Positions 1-29,924 of a DNA stretch of 31,572 nt are shown here, one piece after another. The stretch is from a virus: the IMG/VR virus record IMGVR_UViG_3300029171_000001. One strand, 5' to 3'. The notes below the pieces were generated by a model, which was not told the DNA's origin, did not search any database, and saw nothing but the letters and a program-made list of their open reading frames with translations. Position numbers and translations under genes: made by a program. Position 1 is the stretch's first letter. Every line of letters starts with the position of its first letter.

Positions 1-385
1 GTTTCCCAGTCACGATCCCATGTTTAATAAATTCTATAGGTTTTCCTTGATAAAGGATTAAATGTTTCTTGATACATATTTGCGCTATGTCTTTATAATA
101 ATTAACAGTGCCAGGTTGTTTATTGTGAGATGTTACCATTCCAAAATTATTCATATACCCATGAGAATTATCTTGTGTACTAATCAGTTTACTATATTTA
201 ATATAAGATAAAATTTCCCAATGTTGTTCAAATTCTTCTTTGGTGAACTCATACTCTTTATCTTTATCTCCTTTAATATCAAATTGATAGACGTGATATT
301 TTTTTCCTATTGATAAGAAAAAAGCGCAATTATATTGATTTTCTCTAAGATTTTTTGGCCAACAATAAATCTTTAAATTTTTCAT
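1..385 (-). CDS. hypothetical protein, runs off window edge
   Basis: ATG at 385 (MKNLKIYCWP...), frame open to position 1. Confidence 0.5.
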   Translation of the reverse strand, partial: MKNLKIYCWPKNLRENQYNCAFFLSIGKKYHVYQFDIKGDKDKEYEFTKEEFEQHWEILSYIKYSKLISTQDNSHGYMNNFGMVTSHNKQPGTVNYYKDIAQICIKKHLILYQGKPIEFIKHGIVTGK

Positions 386-472
386 ACTTGAATCTGGTCG
401 CTTTTATTTTTTCTTATTATACGTTTTTAGGCAAAGAAAGATGATAGAGTCTCATTAGAATTTTCAATTGCA

Positions 473-784
473 TCATCTATTTTTAGAATCTCTATCATTT
501 TCTTTTGAGATGGTTTTTTTTATTTCTTGTGTAAGCAATTTTGTTAATTCTTTTTCAGCATCCAAATGTTGGAAATACCCCACATTAAATCCAGATATTG
601 GCTCCCACTTAACTGTTATTGGATAATAAACCTGATATTTACCCTGATGTGTTTTTAACCACTCATCTACAAATAAAACCTCATATGCGTTTTTTTGTTT
701 TAAATTTACTGCACTCTTTAAAATTTCTGAATTAATTTCAGCAGAAATTTGTGCTACAATTTCTTTATCTGTTTGATATCCCAT
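473..784 (-). CDS. hypothetical protein
   Basis: 103 aa ORF, co-oriented with neighbours. Confidence 0.6.
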   Translation of the reverse strand: MGYQTDKEIVAQISAEINSEILKSAVNLKQKNAYEVLFVDEWLKTHQGKYQVYYPITVKWEPISGFNVGYFQHLDAEKELTKLLTQEIKKTISKENDRDSKNR

Positions 785-811
785 ACTTTTAATTTTTTAC
801 TTCTATCACAA

Positions 812-1198
812 TTAATTTGTTACACTAAATCCTTGTGAACAATTCCACCCAGCACGTCCAGAGCTTCCTACTCCCACTAATTTGTTTATTTTTTTAATAT
901 CATCCTTTGAACCTTTAAATAAGCAAACTGATTTATAGCCTCTTGGAATATAATTAATAGATTTACCATGTCCAGTGTTTACTTTTACAAGTTCCAGATC
1001 AAAATCAAATAAAAATTGCTTATCCAATGACAAGTTGTGGTTAAAAATTTTTGTAATCTTTTCACCAACTCGTATTTCTTGATTAGAATAGCCAAAGAAA
1101 AGAATAACAGTGTTTTCACTCAATTCAAACTCTACATCTTTCAATACAATTTTTTCTGTACAACGACCATGCACATATAATCTAAAATCCATATTCAA
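812..1198 (-). CDS. hypothetical protein
   Basis: 128 aa ORF; TAnnTTTG element at 1196-1203 suggests the downstream ATG is the start. Confidence 0.6.
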   Translation of the reverse strand: MNMDFRLYVHGRCTEKIVLKDVEFELSENTVILFFGYSNQEIRVGEKITKIFNHNLSLDKQFLFDFDLELVKVNTGHGKSINYIPRGYKSVCLFKGSKDDIKKINKLVGVGSSGRAGWNCSQGFSVTN

Positions 1199-1205
1199 AT
1201 ATAAT

Positions 1206-1235
1206 AAAAAAGAGCAATAATCAAATTGCTCTTTT
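1206..1235 (-). terminator. intrinsic terminator ending the Leu/Cys tRNA operon
   Basis: AAAAGAGCAAT...ATTGCTCTTTT hairpin with U tract. Confidence 0.65.
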
Positions 1236-1239
1236 CAAT

Positions 1240-1313
1240 TGGAGGTCCTGACTGGATTTTAACCAGTGTAGCAGCTTTTGCAGAGCTGAGCCTTTTCTCT
1301 CGGCCACAGGACC
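1240..1313 (-). tRNA. tRNA-Cys(GCA)
   Basis: cloverleaf, loop CT-GCA-AA, encoded CCA; atypical T loop TTAAAAT. Confidence 0.85.
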
Positions 1314-1318
1314 ATTGA

Positions 1319-1395
1319 GACACCGACTGGAATCGAACCAGCATTTAATTAGTTTTGCAGACTAATCCCGCTATCCACGTATTGGGTACGGTGTC
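1319..1395 (-). tRNA. tRNA-Cys(GCA)
   Basis: GACACCG/CGGTGTC acceptor, loop CTGCAAA, TTCGATT T loop. Confidence 0.85.
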
Positions 1396-1399
1396 ATGT

Positions 1400-1457
1400 T
1401 ATACCCGAACAGGTATAGAAACTACATTTTTATAGAAACTATACCCGATCAGGTATA
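1400..1457. repeat. two near-palindromic 18-mers TATACCCGAWCAGGTATA, 40 bp apart
   Basis: copies at 1400-1417 and 1440-1457. Confidence 0.8.
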
Positions 1458-1459
1458 AA

Positions 1460-2365
1460 TTAAGCAGCTTTTTTGTTTTTACTCTTCTTGTACTTACCTG
1501 TTCTTCTCTTCTTTTGTTTATCACAAACGAAGTCTGCAGCACAATTAGCAGCCCAGCTATGAGGTTTATATCTTACCCTAAAACCTTGACCCTCTAAAGC
1601 AGCCTTCGCTCCTTCGTAAACATATGAAGATTTATTCTTCACATCTTTGTTGGTCATAGAAGCAAGGTAGCTTCTAAGTTTAGCTGGTTGTGTAAGTTGA
1701 ACATTCATTACATATTCCAACTCAGATTCGCTGATGTCATTCAACGAAAGAGTGTTTGTAGGATTTGTAACATTTATCAACCTGTCATTCTTTTCATCAA
1801 TGAAGTATTGTCTTCCCTTGATAAGAACCTTACCCTGAAGATCCTCTGGGATTTTAAAACCAGGGTCGATGTTAATATCTACGTCAAGTCCAATCAACTT
1901 ATTTTGGTGAGATGAATATCCTTGCGCAACAAGATCATCCATATTCATTCTCTTAACAACGCCATCAAGTTCTTTTTCAAGGTAGTTACCAAGATAAAGC
2001 ACACGCTCAACTTCACCCCAGATCTTTCCATAGATGCTAGATTCTTTAGCTGCTTTTACAAGTGCCTTATCTCTGTTTTTATCACCAGTTTTTTCTACCC
2101 ATAACCTCTCACTAGGTACAAGTTCTTTGTTGAAGATGTAGTGAACACCGTCACGTCTAAACTCATCGTAAAACGCAACCACACAAGCGTAAAGAGTGTT
2201 TCTACCCCTTTCTGCGGCATCGGCTCCGACAAAAACTTTGGTTCCTGGAAACTTCTTAAGATAGTTCCGAACATATTCACCAAGGTCTGGGATTAATTCA
2301 CCACCAAACTTCTTGAACCCTTTTTCAAGAGGAATTTTTTCTTCCATTTTTTCTACTGTTTTCAT
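1460..2365 (-). CDS. RNase H-like YkuK (DUF458) family protein with insertions
   Basis: motifs VFVGADA, YACVVAFY, WGEVER, LDVDIN, KPHSWAANCAAD. Confidence 0.7.
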   Translation of the reverse strand: MKTVEKMEEKIPLEKGFKKFGGELIPDLGEYVRNYLKKFPGTKVFVGADAAERGRNTLYACVVAFYDEFRRDGVHYIFNKELVPSERLWVEKTGDKNRDKALVKAAKESSIYGKIWGEVERVLYLGNYLEKELDGVVKRMNMDDLVAQGYSSHQNKLIGLDVDINIDPGFKIPEDLQGKVLIKGRQYFIDEKNDRLINVTNPTNTLSLNDISESELEYVMNVQLTQPAKLRSYLASMTNKDVKNKSSYVYEGAKAALEGQGFRVRYKPHSWAANCAADFVCDKQKKRRTGKYKKSKNKKAA

Positions 2366-2400
2366 AAATATATCTCAATTTTTACGAAAAACAAATTTTG

Positions 2401-2491
2401 TACTCCAGCTGGGATTTGAACCCAGATTGTGATCATTAATCCGTGAAGGATTTTAAGTCCTTTGCGTTTCAGCCAGTTTCGCCACTGGAGC
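2401..2491 (-). tRNA. tRNA-Leu(TAA)
   Basis: class II cloverleaf, loop CT-TAA-AA. Confidence 0.9.
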
Positions 2492-2551
2492 ATTTACCTT
2501 GTTCTTCTTGTTTATAATCGCTTCATTTCGTTTTTATTATTTTTATTTTTG

Positions 2552-2636
2552 TAGCCGAGGCGGGACTCGAACCCGCACGAGCGTAATGCTCACAGGATTT
2601 TAAGTCCTGCGTGTCTACCAATTCCACCACTCGGCC
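2552..2636 (-). tRNA. tRNA-Leu(TAA)
   Basis: canonical class II cloverleaf, loop CT-TAA-AA. Confidence 0.95.
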
Positions 2637-2651
2637 ATTTTAAGTATCGTT

Positions 2652-2688
2652 AAAAAAAAAGGACCCAGATTTAAGTCTGAGCCCTTTT
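2652..2688 (-). terminator. attenuator terminator upstream of Leu/Cys tRNAs
   Basis: AAAAGGGCTCAGA-cttaaa-TCTGGGTCC followed by T9. Confidence 0.85.
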
Positions 2689-2714
2689 ATCAAAAAAATA
2701 CTTTTTATAGATAC

Positions 2715-2828
2715 CTAAGAACTCAAACATAACGGTGCGCATAAACACAAAAAGCCATACCCTAGATCTGTTTTCACAGAAATAGATGGGCTCATTGACC
2801 ACGCTGTTATATTTTGATTTCTTTTCAT
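2715..2828 (-). CDS. putative Leu/Cys leader peptide, 37 aa
   Basis: MKRNQNITAWSMSPSISVKTDLGYGFLCLCAPLCLSS; lies between promoter motifs and terminator. Confidence 0.75.
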   Translation of the reverse strand: MKRNQNITAWSMSPSISVKTDLGYGFLCLCAPLCLSS

Positions 2829-2901
2829 CTTTTATAAATAAGCGGAAAAATTTCTTTTTCCAACACACAAATGTAATACTTTATTTTTTAATTTACAACA
2901 A

Positions 2902-2930
2902 TTATACGAAATATTTTTTAAAAGGTTACA
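2902..2930 (-). promoter_or_regulatory. ECF-type promoter TGTAAC-N16-CGTATAA
   Basis: one of six copies with identical spacing; TAnnTTTG also at 2868-2875. Confidence 0.7.
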
Positions 2931-2937
2931 TTTTTTA

Positions 2938-3132
2938 TTAATCCGTAAACGCTTTATAAGGTTCCCAACCCATTAACTCATAATGCTGCCTCATACAATC
3001 ATCTATGTCTTTACCAACAATTTCTCTAAGTTTTATAGCATCATGCTCTAAAAGTTTTTTAGATCTTTCATCACCTTTTTCAACAACAGTTACACTATTG
3101 TTAGATTCTGCTGTATAAATTTCTATTGTCAT
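2938..3132 (-). CDS. hypothetical protein
   Basis: 64 aa, TAATG overlap with upstream gene. Confidence 0.65.
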   Translation of the reverse strand: MTIEIYTAESNNSVTVVEKGDERSKKLLEHDAIKLREIVGKDIDDCMRQHYELMGWEPYKAFTD

Positions 3133-3617
3133 TACTTAAAATAACGTAAAAAAGGATGGTTGTATGGTTTTATTTTTGGCAAAGTAGATAAAAAATTTTT
3201 AAAAATTTTCAAGCCGCTTTTATCTGTTTGTTGCTCTAAGAAGTAGAGTAATTTTTCGCTTTCCTCTCTAGCTTTTTTCCAATCCACAGGACTATCTCTT
3301 TCTAAAAAAGACATAGCTTCTTGTTTTGTTATATAAACTTCATAATCAAGACATTCACTTTTTTGACTAACACCTATTGGTATTTCACATTCAAGAAAAA
3401 TTTTTTGAATTTCATTTGCTTTTTCCTGAGTAAGTTTGTCAACAAGAAAACCATCAATCACCTCTATTTTTTCCAACTGAACTACTTTAGTTCTCTTTTT
3501 TCCTTCTTTACGTACAAAATTTTTACTTTTATCTAATTTGGACCAAGGGCTTTTTTTTATAAACCATTCAACTTTAAATCTTTCGTTTAATTTCTGTATT
3601 ACTATTTCTATATCCAT
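3132..3617 (-). CDS. hypothetical protein
   Basis: probable start MDIEIV just after the HNH gene stop. Confidence 0.65.
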   Translation of the reverse strand: MDIEIVIQKLNERFKVEWFIKKSPWSKLDKSKNFVRKEGKKRTKVVQLEKIEVIDGFLVDKLTQEKANEIQKIFLECEIPIGVSQKSECLDYEVYITKQEAMSFLERDSPVDWKKAREESEKLLYFLEQQTDKSGLKIFKNFLSTLPKIKPYNHPFLRYFK

Positions 3618-3627
3618 TTTTACATTA

Positions 3628-4161
3628 TTATTTTTTCCACCTTCCAATTGTAGCGTGTGACACTCCATATTTATTAGCACACCACATTACACCATGTTCT
3701 TTAATTTCTTTTTTTAACTCATCTATGTCTGGCCTTACAAAGATTCTTTTGTTTTTTTCATTACAAGGCCTGCAGCGTTTATAAGTATAATTAATTTCAA
3801 CACCACAATCACAGCATTTCGGTTTATTAACCTTTGGTTTGTTTATCAAAATTGTTTGTTCAAGATTTTTCACTCGCTCTCTAACGTCTTTAACCAACAA
3901 ATCTTCATTATGCACTTCTCTATGACAATTAGCACAAACAACCAAACATTTTTCGAACTCCGATTCTATCCACTCCATTGTAGAATTAGAAAGTTTTCGC
4001 ATATCCAACTGACTTTCTTTAGCACCTGGATCTTTATGATGAAATTCAAATGCAGCCAAGTTTTTGTTATAACCACATTTTTCACAACATCCGCCTCGTT
4101 GATCTACAAGAAACAACTTACGTTTTAAACCTCTCAATTTTTGATATTCATATGTATTCAT
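3628..4161 (-). CDS. HNH endonuclease with C-terminal Zn-ribbon and HTH-like tail
   Basis: CEKCG...FEFHH...CANCHREVH; CxxC pairs; ANKYGVSHATIGRW. Confidence 0.85.
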   Translation of the reverse strand: MNTYEYQKLRGLKRKLFLVDQRGGCCEKCGYNKNLAAFEFHHKDPGAKESQLDMRKLSNSTMEWIESEFEKCLVVCANCHREVHNEDLLVKDVRERVKNLEQTILINKPKVNKPKCCDCGVEINYTYKRCRPCNEKNKRIFVRPDIDELKKEIKEHGVMWCANKYGVSHATIGRWKK

Positions 4162-4216
4162 ACTAATAAATAGTATAAAAAACTGAATATCAACATAAAA
4201 TTAAGGTTGATAGTTG

Positions 4217-4289
4217 TGGCCCCTGTCGGACTTGAACCGACGATCCCTTGATTATGAGTCAAGTGCTTTAACCACTAAGCTAAAGGGCC
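4217..4289 (-). tRNA. tRNA(CAT), probably Ile2 (lysidine)
   Basis: GGCCC acceptor start typical of Ile2; loop CT-CAT-AA. Confidence 0.85.
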
Positions 4290-4309
4290 TACAAAGAACG
4301 TTTAGGAAT

Positions 4310-4561
4310 TTACTCTTTCCATTGAGTGTTTCTATTATACTTCCAGGTTTTATATTCCCTGGCCTTGTACACATACACTGGCCTTCCACTTCCATGTCTT
4401 CCTTTTGAGCGCATGCTTTGAGGAGAACAGTCTATATAAAAAGAACCACTTCTTTTAGCACAAATGTAACAATAATCGTGATAATAATGTTTAGCGATTT
4501 TTGTATATTCTCTGCTTGTTTTTGCTTTATTCAGTTTAGCTCTGTTTCTGTTTATTGACAT
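4310..4561 (-). CDS. small basic hypothetical protein
   Basis: 83 aa with CxxC and terminal WKYNRNTQWK. Confidence 0.65.
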   Translation of the reverse strand: MSINRNRAKLNKAKTSREYTKIAKHYYHDYCYICAKRSGSFYIDCSPQSMRSKGRHGSGRPVYVYKAREYKTWKYNRNTQWKE

Positions 4562-4615
4562 CGGTCATCGTTTTAGAGATTAACCTAACGACATCCAGAT
4601 GCATATTTAAAAGGG

Positions 4616-4939
4616 TTATTCATTTTTTAATTCAATTTTAATATATTCTTCTATTGTGTTAAGAAGATGATTTGTTTGAAATTTTATTGAACCAATGGTG
4701 ATGCCAAACATTTCTAGTTCTCTTTTCGAAAATTTTCCATCTCTGATTGCTTCTGAAATTGCGAAAAACTGAGAAGTACCCGCCTTACTTGAAGACATCT
4801 CCTCTGAATCAAAACGTTTTAACATTTCATAAATAGCATCCCTTAGACTATGGTTGTTCCATTCCTCTTCTTCAAAGTTTAAAACAATATCCTTATTAAC
4901 AGGATATCCAACAACTGGTATGACAACTTTGCTTTTCAT
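4616..4939 (-). CDS. hypothetical protein
   Basis: probable start MKSKVV. Confidence 0.55.
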   Translation of the reverse strand: MKSKVVIPVVGYPVNKDIVLNFEEEEWNNHSLRDAIYEMLKRFDSEEMSSSKAGTSQFFAISEAIRDGKFSKRELEMFGITIGSIKFQTNHLLNTIEEYIKIELKNE

Positions 4940-5081
4940 GCTTTTTAAAATTTTGCCACTATACTCGCAACCACACAATCCATACAATAAAGTTTATCAC
5001 CAGAAATACAGCGAGACACTTTTAATAGATTGCAACTACAGGTATAACAAACAATGGTTTTATGTAACTTAATTTTTAATT

Positions 5082-5276
5082 TCATTTTTCTTTGGTTAGC
5101 GCTTTAAGACACATCATAAAAAAATCAGCCTGTTCTTTGGTTTTAATCACCTTGCTAAGTGAAGTTTCTATTGGTTTTTCTTTTGACCAATCCACTTTTA
5201 TCCCCTTAGTTTTTGCAAGCTCAATTATTTCATTAATCTTTTCTTGAACTTTTTGTTTGCTCAAATCTTTGTTCAT
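5082..5276 (-). CDS. hypothetical protein
   Basis: 64 aa, preceded by TATCTTTG at 5281-5288. Confidence 0.6.
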   Translation of the reverse strand: MNKDLSKQKVQEKINEIIELAKTKGIKVDWSKEKPIETSLSKVIKTKEQADFFMMCLKALTKEK

Positions 5277-5298
5277 GTTTCAAAGATACAAAAAAACC

Positions 5299-5955
5299 TT
5301 AAATCAACAAAGATAAATCTCCATTTACCTCTTCTTTTAATGCTCCTTCGCCAAACTCTAGCTTTAATCGCTCTAGCCAGTCATTTGTCTTGATTTTAAC
5401 AACCCAGACAGATCTGCTACCATCAGTCAAAACACCCTTGCACATAACACCTTCTTTTACCTTTCTTTTGCCCTCCCTCACAGAGAGTATAAATTCTTCA
5501 GTAAGTGGTCCTTGATAAATAACCTTTGGAATGTGAAGATTTCCGAAATCTTTAATAAATTGCTTGGGTTCTACAAAACTATTATTCGTATAATCACCTG
5601 GCGCTATATCAAATAACACAACATCCATTGTGTCTCCAGATTTGTGACGGCCAGCAAATGAATTCTCACCTACATACTCAGCAAATACTGTAAAGTTTTT
5701 TGTGTTTCTATAGTTTTTGCTCTTTGTGAAGATCTCCTCTAGGGCATCTCCATATTTTTTTTCAAACAAAGATACCACACCTTCAAATTGAGCACTACTA
5801 TCATTGATTAGATTGGTTCTGGTGCCAAATTTATACCACCCCTTATTCTTACTCCACTCCGCACGAAAATTTTGTCCATCTAGTTTATCAAATGCAATAA
5901 TATGAGAACCAATGAGACCCTGATTAAAATATTCAATATGTGGATATGCTTTTAT
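5299..5955 (-). CDS. RNA ligase family nucleotidyltransferase, apparent ATA start
   Basis: frame extends 59 codons above the tracked GTG and contains KLDG (motif I); also FAEY, VLFDI, KEGV, VKIK motifs. Confidence 0.75.
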   Translation of the reverse strand: MKAYPHIEYFNQGLIGSHIIAFDKLDGQNFRAEWSKNKGWYKFGTRTNLINDSSAQFEGVVSLFEKKYGDALEEIFTKSKNYRNTKNFTVFAEYVGENSFAGRHKSGDTMDVVLFDIAPGDYTNNSFVEPKQFIKDFGNLHIPKVIYQGPLTEEFILSVREGKRKVKEGVMCKGVLTDGSRSVWVVKIKTNDWLERLKLEFGEGALKEEVNGDLSLLI

Positions 5956-6143
5956 GGTATAAGTTTAATATTTTCTTTTTTAGAATCACTGTAATAACTC
6001 ACAGAATCCCCCTCAATTAATTTTTTAATTTGAGTAGCAGCGTCTTGAAAATCTTTTTTATAATGCTCAAGCTCAATGCCACGTATAAATGTGGAACTCA
6101 CAATAAGATCCACAATTTGTTCTTCTGTAATTTCTGTTTTCAT
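5952..6143 (-). CDS. hypothetical protein
   Basis: 63 aa, preceded by TATATTTG at 6148-6155. Confidence 0.6.
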   Translation of the reverse strand: MKTEITEEQIVDLIVSSTFIRGIELEHYKKDFQDAATQIKKLIEGDSVSYYSDSKKENIKLIP

Positions 6144-6165: not shown

Positions 6166-6250
6166 TGGTAGTGGTGAGGGGGTTTGAACCCCTATTTTCA
6201 ACGACCAGTTACGTTTCTCCAAGGTATAAGCTTGGGACGGTACACCACTA
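6166..6250 (-). tRNA. atypical D-armless tRNA-like RNA, anticodon TAT (Ile)
   Basis: acceptor stem with CCA, CCAAG-CTTATAC-CTTGG arm, T arm; no D arm. Confidence 0.7.
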
Positions 6251-6337: not shown

Positions 6338-6347
6338 TTGTTTTTTG

Positions 6348-6431
6348 TTGTGACGGCGGGGATCGAACCCACGTTGACATTTCTGTCCCATCTTATCAGG
6401 ATGGTGCCTAAAACCACTCGACCACGTCACA
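6348..6431 (-). tRNA. tRNA-Ile(GAT) with long variable arm
   Basis: cloverleaf; GACA-GAAA-TGTC variable hairpin. Confidence 0.85.
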
Positions 6432-6909: not shown

Positions 6910-6919
6910 ATAATTTCTG

Positions 6920-7006
6920 TGCGTCTGGCAGGAGTCGAACCTGCGATGGAGTTTTACCTCACCCGCTTAAGAGGCGGGTCCTGTCGGCCACTAAGGGAAC
7001 AGACGC
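6920..7006 (-). tRNA. tRNA-Lys(CTT), long variable arm
   Basis: loop CT-CTT-AA. Confidence 0.85.
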
Positions 7007-7020
7007 AATTATTTTTTCTG

Positions 7021-7104
7021 TGCGCCTGGAGGGATTCGAACCCCCGATGGATTTTACTCGACTGGTTAAAAGCCAGTTGCTATCAGCCGCTAAGCGACAG
7101 GCGC
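7021..7104 (-). tRNA. tRNA-Lys(TTT), extended variable region
   Basis: loop CT-TTT-AA. Confidence 0.85.
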
Positions 7105-7118
7105 AGTTATGTTTTGTG

Positions 7119-7205
7119 TGCGCCTGACAGGATTCGAACCTGTGATTGAGCTTTCGCTCGTCTGCTTAAAAGGCAGTGCCGTTAGGCCTCTACGGGAACA
7201 GACGC
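7119..7205 (-). tRNA. tRNA-Lys(TTT), long variable arm
   Basis: loop CT-TTT-AA; GAGC-GAAA-GCTC variable hairpin. Confidence 0.85.
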
Positions 7206-7383: not shown

Positions 7384-8025
7384 TTACTTTTTTAATTTCA
7401 ACATTAATCTATCAAATCCTATTGCGAACCCAATACCTTCTTTGTATGTTCCGCCGCCTACAACTTGTTTCTGAGCTCCTAGTGATGGTAAAGAAATTTC
7501 AAATCCTTCATTCACATAATAACTCAACCCTCTCTTTACATTTTCACTGACTTCATATTCATCAGTTACCAACTCCACCATTCTTTTTGCAAGAGAAACT
7601 AATTCCTCTCTTGCTTTTTCCAGGTCTCTTGGATTTATCCACTCCAGACCAAATTGAAAGAACTCTCTATATCTTCCTGTTTGTGGTCTTTCATATCTCC
7701 AACACCTTTCAAAATACCACAGCTTTACATCCTTTTGTTGCTTCCAATATTTGTTTGCAATCAACTGTACTGTTGCAGTACCTTCAGGTCTTAAACAAAT
7801 ATCTCTCTCACCCTTATCTTGAAACACATACATCTGTCCAAGAATTTCTTCCCCTGCTTTTTCCGTGTATATCGACTGTGGTTCGATACTCGGAAGAATT
7901 ATTTCATTGAAATTTTCTGCATGTGCAATCTCGATCATACTGTTAAGGATTATACGTCTATCCTTTGCTTCTTGACCAGAGATGATTCTTACACCCTTGC
8001 TTTGTTTTTCAATTTCTAATTCCAT
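7384..8025 (-). CDS. minimal histidyl-tRNA synthetase-like protein (class II catalytic core only)
   Basis: LRPEGT, RYERPQTGRYREFFQ, RGLSYY, GGGTY, GFAIGFDRL; 213 aa, no anticodon-binding domain. Confidence 0.85.
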   Translation of the reverse strand: MELEIEKQSKGVRIISGQEAKDRRIILNSMIEIAHAENFNEIILPSIEPQSIYTEKAGEEILGQMYVFQDKGERDICLRPEGTATVQLIANKYWKQQKDVKLWYFERCWRYERPQTGRYREFFQFGLEWINPRDLEKAREELVSLAKRMVELVTDEYEVSENVKRGLSYYVNEGFEISLPSLGAQKQVVGGGTYKEGIGFAIGFDRLMLKLKK

Positions 8026-8266: not shown

Positions 8267-8339
8267 ATTTTAATTTTTCTACGCAACTTGCTGGTTCGGC
8301 CAAGTCTATAAAAAATTATAAAACAGTCTCATAACTGAG

Positions 8340-8421
8340 AGCCTGAGAGGAGATTCGAACTCCTGGTGTTTGTATTCTCGCTTACAAGGCGAGCGCAATC
8401 GGCCACTAATGCAACACAGGC
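8340..8421 (-). tRNA. tRNA-Thr(TGT), extended variable region
   Basis: loop CT-TGT-AA; one acceptor mismatch. Confidence 0.8.
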
Positions 8422-8608: not shown

Positions 8609-8700
8609 GGTGCATGACGGGATTTGAACCCGTGTTGTTTGCTTTCGCTCTTCCTGCTTCACAGGCAGGTTCCTTCGACCATACTCGGACCACACGCACC
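8609..8700 (-). tRNA. tRNA-His(GTG), long variable region
   Basis: G-1:C73 pair, loop CT-GTG-AA. Confidence 0.85.
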
Positions 8701-9906: not shown

Positions 9907-9948
9907 AGAAAACAAGAAGGCCCGTATCTTGTGTGGATACGGGCCTTC
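9907..9948 (-). terminator. attenuator terminator of the large tRNA operon
   Basis: perfect 13 bp stem GAAGGCCCGTATC/GATACGGGCCTTC followed by TTGTTTTCT. Confidence 0.9.
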
Positions 9949-9984
9949 GGAATTTCTTTTGGCTCAGTTTTTAAATTATGCGCC

Positions 9985-10086
9985 TCATGATCTGTTTCCT
10001 ACATACCCGTATACCAACGTTTTATTAATATGCTTTTTGCATATAATCGTTGTGTTATTGGTTGTATGTAAGATATTCATTAGCAT
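9985..10086 (-). CDS. putative Asn/His/Thr/Lys/Ile leader peptide, 33 aa
   Basis: MLMNILHTTNNTTIICKKHINKTLVYGYVGNRS; 18 of codons 4-23 are N/H/T/K/I. Confidence 0.85.
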   Translation of the reverse strand: MLMNILHTTNNTTIICKKHINKTLVYGYVGNRS

Positions 10087-10149
10087 GATTTCTTATTTTT
10101 TACTTTTGTTGTTTCTTTTAAATAGTTGAAAAAATTGTTTTTCGATAAT

Positions 10150-10178
10150 TTATACGTACAAAGATAGAATAAGTTTCA
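10150..10178 (-). promoter_or_regulatory. ECF-type promoter TGAAAC-N16-CGTATAA with nested TATCTTTG
   Basis: repeated motif directly upstream of the leader ORF. Confidence 0.7.
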
Positions 10179-14733: not shown

Positions 14734-17526
14734 TTATCTGTGTATTCCCTTACCTTGATTAACGTAATAATCAATATTATTAACTTTCTTTAATTGCTCT
14801 GAAACGGTTTTAAACAAAGCCTTAGCTGGAAGGCTTAAGTTTTTCACTGGTTTTCCATCTCTCATATTTTCACAATAAACCCTCACCTCTTTAATTGCTG
14901 TAGCCATTTGGAATTTATCCCTAGCTGCGTCTACCATATCTCTTGAGTATAAATCTAAATAACCCAAAATTGCTGAATGGACCTGGAAACTCTGTGTTTG
15001 TTCTGTGTTTTGTTTTACACCATTATCAACTGGTTTTTGTTGCCCCAAAGCAACAGAAGTAAATAAAGAAAGTGCTACTACTAAATTTTCTTTCCACCCC
15101 TCTTCAATTTTCTTTGGCTCCTTTTTAGGTAAAGCAACAAACGCCTCAACTTCTGTTTCTCCATTTGCAAGCCTAACCGAACATCTGTTATATCCATCGA
15201 GCAATATTCCATCAACAACCACTGGCTCATTGTGTAAATCGTCTTCGTGTGGCCCCTCATTATTTTCGATATCGGAATCATATCTACCACCTTCTTTTTG
15301 GTATGCCTCATAGTATTCTTTAAAACTTGCATCGCTATTTAATAAATCAATCAAAGATATTTTTTGTATTTTAAAACTTCTGTGAGCTATTAAATTTTTC
15401 ATAAAATAATCTGGCAGATCATTAGAGTCTGGTGTAATATTTCTTATATGGTTATTTACATCTCTACCTGAAAAAATCCAATCGCCGTTAATTTGCTTTG
15501 CTTCTCTTAAACTAACTTTATGATAATGATTAGAGTAAACATCTTCAGTAAGACCAAAATCAACTAAAACAATTGCGTCTTGTCCACCTCTTTTTACAAT
15601 TCCATATGAGTTTAATCTTTGCAAATCTCCAATTGGAAGATCATAGCCTCCTATAAAATTAAAAATAGAATATACAAACTCATCTTCCCACATTTGTTTT
15701 ACAATCTCAGGGTCAACATCCATTTCATAATTTGGTTTACCTTTTGCTTTAACCTGATTACCATAATTATTTATTGCAGCACAATAATCCTTAAAAGAAA
15801 AACCAACAATTCTTTCGAAATCTTCTTTAGATGCTGGTCTTGCTAATTCCATTTCCACCCACAAATTCTCTTCATCGTATTCAAACACTTGTGCCAAAAC
15901 ATCTTTAATGTCATAATAATTAGAATATTGTATTTCGACTTCATTTTGAGCTATACCCTTACCATTCTTTGCTAGTTTCAACACCTTATCGTTATCAATT
16001 TTATAAACTATCCTTGAAGAGCCTGCTGCCAATCTCTGTAAATTACTTTGACAATATTGAATACGTTGCTTAAAAGTTTTAAGAGCTTTAAAATAATTCA
16101 TATCAAAGTGTTGTGGGTATTCTTCATCTATTACAACCTCGTTTACTGTATCTACTTTTTTCAACAAATGCTTTTCAATAAAATTTATAACTCTCTTTAT
16201 ATCATTTACAGAATAAAACTCTCCAACTATATTTCCATCAGCATATAACAAGTATGAATTTTTATTCATTCCAGTTTTTGTATCTTTTCTAATTAAACCT
16301 ACGGCAACTCTTAAATCAATACCATTTAAATTTTTTCTAGCAACAGGATTATCATAATTGAACAGGTTTGTTCTTATATCTTTGTTGGCATTTCCAAAAC
16401 GTACAACGCCTGGAGGAAGATAATTTGATTCTATTTCTTTTTTTAAATCCAACGCTTGTTGTTTATTTAAAAACCCACCCTCAATTCCATTCTTATTTAA
16501 AACACTATTAATTTTGTCAATATTTGCCGCAACAACATTTTGTAAAACAAAAGATTCTTTAATTGTGTTTTTTACTATATCTCTTAACTCGTTTTTGCCT
16601 TCAACATAATGCTCGTAATGTTGTATCAATTGATTGTCGTTTAAATAATATTTTACATTTTCAGGAGTAAAATTTACAATTTCCCTGCCCTTAATTTCTA
16701 TACCATCATAACCAAGTTTAAGCATTTCTTGTTCAATAGAAGTATTGGCCTCAAATTCTCTTGCGTCTTTGTATTTTTTAAAAATCAAATTTTGTTGAAT
16801 CCATATCTCGGCAATATTGGCATCTCTAAAAACCATAGGGTTCTTTGGTTTTCCATTAACAACATAATAAACTGTCCCATACCCTTTTGCCATTGCTTTG
16901 TTACTAAGTGGTACCATGTATAAACCTCTTCCAAATCTTGCACTTGAACCGTTGGCGACATCTAGTGTAGAATCTGAAGATATGCCTCTATAAGTCACAT
17001 TTTTTCTTTTCCATTTTTTATATTCAGCCATGCTAGGATCATATTCCTCTTCTTTGAATATGTTTTTATTCGATGAATCCCACTCACCTTTATTTTTTAC
17101 AGATTTAAGTTGATTTGGCTCAAAAACAAACCCATCAAAATTTCCACTACCATCTGGTAGAATTGCTCCATCATAACCTAAACCTTTCAATTGACCAAGA
17201 CCATACTTTTCATATTCTTCCCAGCCAGCTGGATTTTGAATTGATGCGTATAGCTCCATGATGTGACCACTACCTGCAGCCCCAACTTCTCCAGCTTCAA
17301 TTGCTGACTTATTTGATGTGAACCATATGATCGGCTGGACCGACTTTTTTATGTTAAATTTGCTGAATTTTTTGCTGGTGCCGTGATAAACAACAATGGG
17401 CACCCCACCAGAGGAAACCTTACTACTGCCAAACCAAGACTTAAAATTGTCATTTAGATTATCTAGTGCTGGTTCAACTGCTTCTTTTAAAATTTGATTT
17501 ATGAATTTTCTAAGTTCAAATGACAT
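14734..17526 (-). CDS. multi-domain polyvalent protein (two ART-like, kinase-like, ParB-like modules)
   Basis: VYHGT...GYDG...PNQLKS; YRG...GRGLY; GSSRIVY...VLKLA...LVDFG; LLDGYNR. Confidence 0.7.
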   Translation of the reverse strand: MSFELRKFINQILKEAVEPALDNLNDNFKSWFGSSKVSSGGVPIVVYHGTSKKFSKFNIKKSVQPIIWFTSNKSAIEAGEVGAAGSGHIMELYASIQNPAGWEEYEKYGLGQLKGLGYDGAILPDGSGNFDGFVFEPNQLKSVKNKGEWDSSNKNIFKEEEYDPSMAEYKKWKRKNVTYRGISSDSTLDVANGSSARFGRGLYMVPLSNKAMAKGYGTVYYVVNGKPKNPMVFRDANIAEIWIQQNLIFKKYKDAREFEANTSIEQEMLKLGYDGIEIKGREIVNFTPENVKYYLNDNQLIQHYEHYVEGKNELRDIVKNTIKESFVLQNVVAANIDKINSVLNKNGIEGGFLNKQQALDLKKEIESNYLPPGVVRFGNANKDIRTNLFNYDNPVARKNLNGIDLRVAVGLIRKDTKTGMNKNSYLLYADGNIVGEFYSVNDIKRVINFIEKHLLKKVDTVNEVVIDEEYPQHFDMNYFKALKTFKQRIQYCQSNLQRLAAGSSRIVYKIDNDKVLKLAKNGKGIAQNEVEIQYSNYYDIKDVLAQVFEYDEENLWVEMELARPASKEDFERIVGFSFKDYCAAINNYGNQVKAKGKPNYEMDVDPEIVKQMWEDEFVYSIFNFIGGYDLPIGDLQRLNSYGIVKRGGQDAIVLVDFGLTEDVYSNHYHKVSLREAKQINGDWIFSGRDVNNHIRNITPDSNDLPDYFMKNLIAHRSFKIQKISLIDLLNSDASFKEYYEAYQKEGGRYDSDIENNEGPHEDDLHNEPVVVDGILLDGYNRCSVRLANGETEVEAFVALPKKEPKKIEEGWKENLVVALSLFTSVALGQQKPVDNGVKQNTEQTQSFQVHSAILGYLDLYSRDMVDAARDKFQMATAIKEVRVYCENMRDGKPVKNLSLPAKALFKTVSEQLKKVNNIDYYVNQGKGIHR

Positions 17527-29400: not shown

Positions 29401-29487
29401 AAGCGGATACTGGATTCGAACACAGTGACACCGTTTCTGGTGTTCGAGCTTATGAGACTCGTGAGATGACCCCTTCTCTAATCCGCA
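29401..29487 (-). tRNA. tRNA-Met(CAT), initiator-like, long variable arm
   Basis: 1:72 mismatch, loop CT-CAT-AA, bulged T stem. Confidence 0.7.
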
Positions 29488-29496
29488 ATATTTTTA

Positions 29497-29583
29497 TTAA
29501 CGCTTACTTATCCTGCGCAATTAGACGACATGCCCAATTAAGGACACACTTGGACTTGAACCAAAATCTTGTAAAGACATTAA
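29497..29583 (-). ncRNA. permuted tRNA-like RNA
   Basis: T arm TTGG-TTCAAGT-CCAA, closed acceptor-like hairpin, then D-arm-like GTCTAATTGCGCAGGAT, inside a terminal stem. Confidence 0.5.
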
Positions 29584-29589
29584 ATGTAG

Positions 29590-29674
29590 TAGCGGGAGTC
29601 AGATTCGAACTGACGTTCTCTTTCGAGTTAGAGGTTATGAGCCTCCGCTGGATCCACCTCCAGTCGATCCCGCA
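29590..29674 (-). tRNA. tRNA-Met(CAT), initiator-like, long variable arm
   Basis: 1:72 mismatch, loop CT-CAT-AA. Confidence 0.8.
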
Positions 29675-29679
29675 ATTTG

Positions 29680-29827
29680 TGGCGATGATAGGAATCGAAC
29701 CTATTTTCTCTGCGACATGCACCGCAGCGAGTTTTAGACCGACAGATTTTACAAACCAAACACCTATCTATAGTTCAGTGTCTTAAAAATCAAAATCTCA
29801 TTAAGTCTTCCATCTCTCTCCATCGCA
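29680..29827 (-). ncRNA. 148 nt expanded tRNA-like RNA
   Basis: GCGATG/CATCGC acceptor, ATAGG-TTCGATT-CCTAT T arm, variable hairpin, greatly enlarged anticodon region. Confidence 0.55.
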
Positions 29828-29838
29828 AACGTTTGTTG

Positions 29839-29924
29839 TACCAAAGGTGGGACTCGAACCCACAATTCCACAAGGGAACTCGCTTATGAGGCGAGCGCAA
29901 TTACCACATCTGACTCACTTTGGC
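29839..29924 (-). tRNA. tRNA(CAT), Met or Ile2, long variable arm
   Basis: loop CT-CAT-AA. Confidence 0.8.

Follow-up and report, generated by a model that had tools for sequence, protein, structure and literature searches.

A stretch of 31,572 nucleotides (nt) from IMG/VR virus record IMGVR_UViG_3300029171_000001 (the window), which derives from an uncultured giant phage, contains on its minus strand an operon with genes for tRNA-Leu(UAA) and tRNA-Cys(GCA), preceded by a leader with a short open reading frame (ORF) and a terminator. This leader is very probably a leader-peptide transcription attenuator that controls the phage tRNA operon, and its organization suggests that the phage probably makes tRNA-Leu(UAA) and tRNA-Cys only when ribosomes read UUA/UUG and Cys codons slowly. 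The observations consist of the sequence elements themselves, their conservation, the covariation of both alternative helices, the coding signature of the ORF, and an enrichment of codons that match the tRNAs. At the level of sequence, every feature of a leader-peptide attenuator that was looked for is present, except a conserved 1:2 helix. The elements of the leader are as follows.

2868 to 2898, minus strand: promoter-like site of the Bacteroidota type (TTG, 20 nt, TACATTTG) with the -7 box at 2875-2868, found by motif scan, its function being putative.
2715 to 2828, minus strand: leader ORF of 37 codons plus TAG, MKRNQNITAWSMSPSISVKTDLGYGFLCLCAPLCLSS, with the ATG at 2828 and the TAG at 2717-2715, the frame being open in homologs.
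2767 to 2780, minus strand: mid-ORF hairpin TCTGT-GAAA-ACAGA, from minimum-energy folds.
2724 to 2750, minus strand: regulatory codon run L27 C28 L29 C30 A P L33 C34 L35, encoded by TTG TGT TTA TGC GCA CCG TTA TGT TTG.
2717 to 2728, minus strand: segment 2, the 5' strand of the antiterminator, GTTTGAGTTCTT, which pairs with 2688-2675.
2690 to 2712, minus strand: spacer within the antiterminator helix, predicted to fold into a small hairpin (ATC...GAT).
2652 to 2688, minus strand: attenuator terminator with a stem of 13 base pairs (bp), a 6-nt loop, and nine T (2660-2652), supported by covariation.

An earlier note, made from the letters of this DNA, whose statements on the sequence all hold, had drawn attention to the 37-codon ORF at 2828-2715, and its reading of the 3' end, where the codon run is followed by AGT TCT TAG, is correct; the C terminus of the encoded peptide is L-C-L-C-A-P-L-C-L-S-S. 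It is likewise the case that Leu and Cys account for seven of nine consecutive codons (2750-2724) and that the Leu codons in this run are all TTA or TTG; the one CTA codon elsewhere in the ORF is codon 22, which precedes the run. UUA/UUG (UUR) Leu codons and Cys codons together make up 5.8% of the codons in the long ORFs of the window, and relative to this background the content of the whole leader ORF is elevated (P = 0.005), as is that of the last 16 codons, 7 of which are UUR-Leu or Cys (P = 1.6e-5, for an interval picked after seeing the data). No other stop-free stretch of 9 codons, in any of the six frames of the 31.5-kb window, contains as many as 7 UUR-Leu/Cys codons; shuffled sequences have 0.13 such stretches.

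Homologous loci were obtained by taking the DNA around homologs (71 in number) of the YkuK-like protein encoded in the operon from viral contigs, metagenome contigs, and assemblies. A single-protein scan of viral contigs returned only a relative with 95% identity and a profile scan added three loci, the useful set coming from a metagenome scan and contig look-ups. The exact 15-mer TGTTTGAGTTCTTAG gave at least 117 matches in viral contigs, mostly unrelated, with L110, an already known relative, alone being relevant; megablast of positions 1-6000 of the window against GenBank phages found no match. From related phage contigs, in which YkuK is 41-100% identical to that of the window, 18 distinct homologous leaders were recovered upstream of the first tRNA-Leu, each composed of a 33-39-codon ORF and a terminator that ends just before the tRNA. 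All 18 precede tRNA-Leu(UAA), and tRNA-Cys(GCA) is found after the YkuK-like gene wherever the locus reaches far enough; the order tRNA-Leu(UAA), YkuK, tRNA-Cys(GCA) is constant across the loci examined. The statistics for RNA pairing given below are from a DNA alignment with 19 rows (A2), and the peptide comparisons are from alignment A3.

The frame that encodes the Leu and Cys residues is open in all 18 homologous leaders, the other two frames having stops in nearly all of them, and each leader contains 2-3 Cys codons and 2-7 UUR-Leu codons. When the 18 leaders are pooled, Cys codons are enriched 6.8-fold (7.1% versus a background of 1.04%) and UUR-Leu codons 2.6-fold (12.5% versus 4.75%), whereas CUN-Leu codons, which are not read by the UAA anticodon, are unenriched (3.4% versus 3.3%, 1.0-fold). 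Close relatives differ in the leader ORF mostly at the third position of codons (with, for example, 1/2/7 and 6/4/15 substitutions at the three positions), the signature of a translated frame, and we infer that the ORF is translated. The earlier note had held that the proposal should be given up if neither the frame nor the Leu/Cys content was conserved in homologs; this comparison has been carried out and both are conserved across the 18 leaders, so that those grounds for rejection do not exist.

The arms of the terminator, AAAAGGGCTCAGA (2688-2676) and TCTGGGTCCTTTT (2669-2657), are joined by the loop CTTAAA; its T-run ends at 2652 and the tRNA-Leu(UAA) gene starts at G2636, in agreement with the 15-nt separation reported previously. 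This helix is paired in 93% of alignment cells, as compared with no more than 68% in slid controls, and both sides have changed in 8 of its 13 pairs, a level of covariation matched by none of 500 shuffles. The alternative helix is formed by segment 2 (GUUUGAGUUCUU), 12 nt at the 3' end of the leader ORF that take in its final codons and the T of the TAG. The earlier note had proposed two leader segments as partners of the terminator 5' arm and was uncertain which of them is the antiterminator. Conservation and covariation now settle this in favor of the ORF 3' end: the proposed TTTGAGTTCTT pairing is located at 2727-2717, extends to GTTTGAGTTCTT (2728-2717), and involves the terminator 5' arm in all lineages. 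The other segment, TGAGCCC, is present at 2793-2787 but was ruled out because it is not conserved; L001, a relative with 95% identity, has TGAGTCC, and other lineages have nothing corresponding to it.

The antiterminator helix is paired in 85.6% of cells (no more than 60% when slid), with its 7-bp core paired in about 98%. The pair between columns 128 and 172 switches from AU to GC in five sequences; where column 172, which lies in the 5' arm, has changed from U to C, its two alternative partners have changed with it, namely column 128 of the ORF end (from A to G) and column 190 of the 3' arm. Lineages with very different terminators have ORF ends that match them (AACCCAAGC/GTTTGGGTT, GAGCCCGAAC/GTCGGGCTC, and AAGCTCAAAC/GTTTGAGCTT). 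RNAalifold, applied to the part of the nascent RNA that starts at the ORF end and stops where the 5' arm is complete, yields exactly the antiterminator helix, and this helix is present in the minimum-energy fold of each of the 19 individual nascent RNAs (-8.4 to -16.2 kcal/mol versus -4 to -7 kcal/mol in shuffles). With regard to the remainder of the leader, the ORF and terminator are separated by a 30-nt spacer whose hairpin is predicted in nearly all lineages with differing sequences. The TCTGT-GAAA-ACAGA hairpin noted previously is located at 2780-2767; every lineage folds some hairpin at this mid-ORF place, again with differing sequences, and it may be an RNA polymerase pause hairpin. RNAalifold found no consensus structure in the ORF body.

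The 251-nt leader RNA is strongly structured, with a folding z of -5.6 relative to shuffles, and segment 2 is constrained as RNA, with several of the Leu/Cys codons (UGU UUG) lying within the helix-forming segment. These features would be expected if the leader acted purely as RNA, whether as a switch or as a processing element (for instance, a T-box-like sensor of uncharged tRNA, a protein-binding leader, or an RNase site), with an untranslated ORF whose Leu/Cys codons are by-products of RNA structure. However, such an element does not account for a frame that is open in 18 variants despite wide nucleotide divergence, with the other frames closed, or for the predominance of third-position substitutions among close relatives, and the Leu-Cys pairs upstream of segment 2, which are part of no conserved helix, are kept as codons in which TGT and TGC, and TTA and TTG, alternate. 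In addition, searches of the leader against Rfam returned only tRNA models above threshold; T-box is absent at the gathering threshold and at E values up to 5, no match was obtained to leader families (Leu, His, Thr, Trp leaders, and others), and the rest were sub-threshold chance matches to terminator-like small RNAs. An RNA-only element is therefore extremely unlikely.

The peptide itself has the consensus M.R.IN...GLC.Y..LCG...CLS, with little more shared, and the homologs are 16-53% identical to the peptide of the window. In its N-terminal half (MKR.IN.. / MRIMINMTSNPIEN..), conservation among close relatives extends beyond the Leu and Cys positions, and gene callers annotate 39-amino acid (aa) genes at the position of the leader; together with the coding signature, this could be taken to indicate an ordinary small phage gene, for a Cys-rich micro-protein or a precursor resembling those of ribosomally synthesized and post-translationally modified peptides (RiPPs), that has its own terminator. 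The Leu/Cys content would then reflect the job of the peptide, as opposed to codon sensing, and the tRNAs would arise from constitutive leaky readthrough. But in the distant lineages Leu, Cys, and Gly are the only peptide positions retained, and an ordinary gene leaves unexplained why UUR-Leu is enriched and CUN-Leu is not, why each lineage has 8-12 nt at the end of the ORF that are complementary to, and covary with, the terminator 5' arm, and why the ORF is constantly placed ahead of tRNA-Leu(UAA) with tRNA-Cys downstream. We consider it improbable. The specific possibilities of a lipoprotein signal or a RiPP precursor were set aside, since there is no hydrophobic signal region, lipobox order, or nearby modifying enzyme, and the 37-aa peptide gave no match in Pfam.

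The geometry of the leader is suited to control by a translating ribosome. In a footprint model, the ribosome was taken to cover about 15 nt before and 12 nt after the first base of the A-site codon. When the model ribosome is stalled at an upstream Leu/Cys codon, the nascent RNA of 17 of the 19 sequences folds into the antiterminator, whereas none does so when the ribosome has reached the stop codon, and all then form the terminator. Each leader has 2-7 Leu/Cys codons at which stalling leaves segment 2 free; in the window, codons 27-30 (2750-2739) are far enough upstream to do so. In the mechanism that we propose, pairing of segment 2 with the terminator 5' arm (segment 3) would block formation of the 3:4 terminator hairpin. 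When UUA/UUG and UGU/UGC codons are decoded rapidly, the ribosome would reach the UAG and cover segment 2, allowing the 3:4 hairpin to form and transcription to stop 15 nt upstream of the first tRNA. A shortage of charged tRNA-Leu(UAA) or tRNA-Cys would stall the ribosome at codons 27-30 (L-C-L-C), with its footprint short of segment 2; the 2:3 helix would form once the 5' arm has been transcribed, and RNA polymerase would continue into the tRNA genes. Readthrough would then reach tRNA-Leu(UAA), ykuK, and tRNA-Cys, and RNase P would free the tRNAs, the net effect being negative feedback on the supply of exactly tRNA-Leu(UAA) and tRNA-Cys. The kinetic competition between the helices and the direction of regulation are part of this proposal.

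A switch of this kind requires just that the ribosome reaches, or misses, the stop codon, and in about 12 of the 19 sequences the minimum-energy fold joins the start of the ORF to segment 2, with differing registers, so that an absence of translation would also be read out. The leader might therefore be an attenuator that is coupled to translation but responds to its overall capacity or timing, for example the closeness of the ribosome to RNA polymerase or a shutdown of host translation, and not to the decoding of Leu and Cys codons. Sensing of that type has no need for a specific and conserved enrichment of UUR-Leu and Cys codons, nor for the different, array-matched composition of the first leader in the window (described below), and it is highly unlikely. 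A 1:2 anti-antiterminator, which would give termination in a leader that is not translated, is plausible.

Several observations weigh against Leu/Cys-specific attenuation and should be recognized. No conserved 1:2 pairing was established by RNAalifold or in the folds of the 19 sequences. The antiterminator core is short, 7-8 bp including G-U pairs, and a clean two-sided change is seen in only one of its pairs, because segment 2 itself is constrained as codons. At equilibrium, each of the 19 full-length RNAs favors the terminator, and a stalled ribosome does not alter this; as the terminator is the more stable fold throughout, the switch must be kinetic. In the Escherichia coli trp attenuator the terminator is likewise the more stable fold and the choice is kinetic. 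Three of the seven regulatory codons (L33, C34, and L35) are so placed that a ribosome stalled at them would mask segment 2, and the conservation of the N-terminal half of the peptide among close relatives exceeds what a pure codon sensor would require. A Fisher contrast of whole-ORF composition between the first leader and the Leu/Cys leader is marginal (P = 0.03-0.09). In some relatives the tRNA-Cys genes may escape control by the leader: an extra terminator-like hairpin is present directly before tRNA-Cys, after ykuK, in L030 (about 3926), L032 (about 3945), and L033 (about 3764), and in L001 one such hairpin follows tRNA-Leu (3095-3146), next to an HNH insertion. These extra hairpins may be second control points or operon breaks. 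Finally, in L014, whose YkuK is 65% identical to that of the window, an HNH endonuclease gene (L014:296-757) occupies the place of the leader and reaches and overlaps the start of tRNA-Leu(UAA), and neither a Leu/Cys leader nor a terminator is present there; judged from its sequence, this locus is a natural knockout of the proposed attenuator.

The operon downstream of the leader contains the following elements.

2551 to 2636, minus strand: tRNA-Leu(UAA), the first regulated gene (ARAGORN; Rfam, 60.9 bits).
2400 to 2491, minus strand: second tRNA-Leu(UAA), 92 nt (ARAGORN; Rfam, 55.1 bits).
1460 to 2365, minus strand: YkuK/DUF458-like RNase H-like protein of 301 aa (weak match to Pfam PF04308; the 71 homologs; synteny).
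1317 to 1395, minus strand: tRNA-Cys(GCA) (ARAGORN only).
1240 to 1313, minus strand: tRNA-Cys(GCA) (ARAGORN; Rfam, 58 bits).
1207 to 1236, minus strand: operon-end terminator, from a terminator search.

These elements are in the right order, with no room for a second promoter, and no terminator-like site was found on the minus strand between 2657 and the operon-end terminator. The YkuK/DUF458 gene (1460-2365) lies invariably between tRNA-Leu and tRNA-Cys in these phages, a constant position from which it would be co-regulated by the attenuator, and the protein possibly has a role in tRNA processing or repair.

The window contains a second leader of this kind, termed here the first leader, whose ORF at 10086-9985 on the minus strand (MLMNILHTTNNTTIICKKHINKTL...) is followed by a perfect 13-bp terminator, the element as a whole spanning 9907-10178. 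The ORF is rich in Asn, His, Thr, Ile, and Lys and precedes an array of Asn, His, Thr, Lys, and Ile tRNAs. Homologs of it (MYGLNLHITINNTICNKKH...) occur in distant relatives (L004:2423-2527 and L033:273-377) ahead of Asn-Asn-His-Thr-Thr-Lys-Lys-Ile arrays, and the recurrence before the same kind of array indicates that the same design with other amino acids is real. The earlier suggestion that the two leaders follow the same logic with different amino acids is only partly borne out, by the homologs and their matching arrays, the whole-ORF contrast given above being marginal; a strong contrast between the two leaders was obtained only in intervals picked after seeing the data and is not relied on. 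As a tentative and rather doubtful extension, the Leu/Cys unit could belong to a series of codon-matched sensors that work independently across the phage and together constitute an inducible regulon for tRNA homeostasis or counter-defense. Each tRNA block would then be switched on only when the decoding of its own codons fails, the triggers including host anticodon nucleases or other defenses that deplete those host tRNAs, and the virus would in effect monitor the host translation apparatus codon by codon.

The promoter-like site upstream of the Leu/Cys leader conforms to the consensus of Bacteroidota primary-sigma promoters, TTG-N17-23-TAnnTTTG. A scan of the window for this motif gave five matches on the minus strand, as compared with 1.9 +/- 1.4 in shuffles, and these include the sites that precede both leaders and two other genes. 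The earlier note had referred to the same promoter motif at both leaders; a site of the same type is indeed present upstream of the first leader, with the end of its box at 10159, but it is better described as the Bacteroidota-type TTG-N20-TACATTTG. The motif is found upstream of the leader in 16 of 19 loci, at 7-54 nt from the leader ATG in some and at about 190-240 nt in others, with an ORF of about 60 aa between them; in the window, the leader ORF begins 39 nt downstream of the -7 box. No Shine-Dalgarno sequence precedes the leader ATG, which is compatible with hosts of the Bacteroidota type. These signals suggest a Bacteroidota host, whose RNA polymerase would be used. In L004, L017, and L022, the -7 box ends 7 nt upstream of the leader ATG and the leader mRNA would be leaderless or nearly so. 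Most relatives have the ORF of about 60 aa (...RPNVIAEGDT...) between the promoter and the leader ORF (L006:1880-2025, L007, which has the same sequence, L008, L016, L025-L027, L030, L032, and L035); by eye it is HicB/UPF0150-like. L006 and L007 keep it although their YkuK is 100% identical to that of the window, whereas the window (about 2845-2862) and L001 retain its first bases alone, TTGGAAAAG, and there it appears to have been lost through recent deletion.

Leader-peptide attenuation is a textbook mechanism for amino acid biosynthesis, of which trpL is the prototype and leuL, ilvL of ilvGMEDA, and thrL are multivalent enterobacterial examples. The phage leader resembles these in several respects. 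Its short ORF, here putatively translated, has a cluster of regulatory codons that represent at least two amino acids, and an intrinsic terminator separates it from the first structural gene. The terminator shares its 5' arm with an antiterminator, and the two exclude each other; the antiterminator strand would be masked once the ribosome has reached the stop, and the terminator is the more stable structure, the choice being kinetic. There is no sequence similarity to the enterobacterial leaders, and the phage element differs in that it would regulate tRNA genes and not biosynthetic enzymes, with a decoding molecule as its output and feedback that closes on tRNA supply as opposed to amino acid supply. 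Its segment 2 also lies within the ORF, overlapping the stop codon, and no conserved 1:2 helix was found. The pheM leader attenuator of E. coli pheST, the operon for phenylalanyl-tRNA synthetase, is similar in applying leader-peptide attenuation to a gene of the translation apparatus and sensing the decoding of cognate codons; unlike the phage leader, it is chromosomal, regulates a tRNA synthetase protein, and involves a single amino acid. T-box riboswitches also gate terminator/antiterminator readthrough by the state of a specific tRNA, but there a specifier codon and the T-box sequence contact the uncharged tRNA itself and no translation is involved, whereas the present leader has a conserved ORF instead.

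Phage tRNA clusters, such as the tRNA region of T4 and the arrays of jumbo phages, are interspersed with small ORFs and homing endonuclease genes. The AT-rich, phage-like window is similar to these; ARAGORN places all of its 23 tRNA genes on the minus strand, and among them lie HNH-type ORFs, a fragment with the core of histidyl-tRNA synthetase (HisRS), and other phage genes. We know of no codon-sensing control of phage tRNA clusters, and a full-text search of the literature found no description of leader-peptide control of tRNA genes, the one candidate paper being concerned with amino acid operons only. What is new here is the apparent target of attenuation, namely tRNA genes, in a phage. If confirmed, it would mean that phages do not simply dump tRNAs into the cell but meter each tRNA set against real-time decoding speed, and it would provide a mechanistic handle on the long-debated role of the tRNAs of large phages, whether in compensating for codon usage or in replacing degraded or cleaved host tRNAs. 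The family alignment constitutes a set of natural variants with different terminators and matching antiterminators, and the leaders could serve as compact codon-specific sensors of translation speed in hosts of the Bacteroidota type.

Some other features of the window are recorded here. Several tRNAs that are normally class I (Lys, Ile, Thr, and Met) are 82-88 nt in length, apparently with a long extra or variable arm (6347-6431, 6919-7205, 8339-8421, and 29402-29924, all on the minus strand). Rfam, but not ARAGORN, calls tRNA-like genes at 6169-6249 and 8609-8699, and the converse is true of the tRNA-Cys at 1317-1395. The HisRS-like ORF within the tRNA array (7384-8025, minus strand, 213 aa) corresponds to the catalytic core only (PF13393, 8.6e-21; PF00587) and has no anticodon-binding domain. 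An ORF of 930 aa at 14734-17526 on the minus strand has an N-terminal ART-PolyVal ADP-ribosyltransferase domain (PF18760, 2.4e-18).

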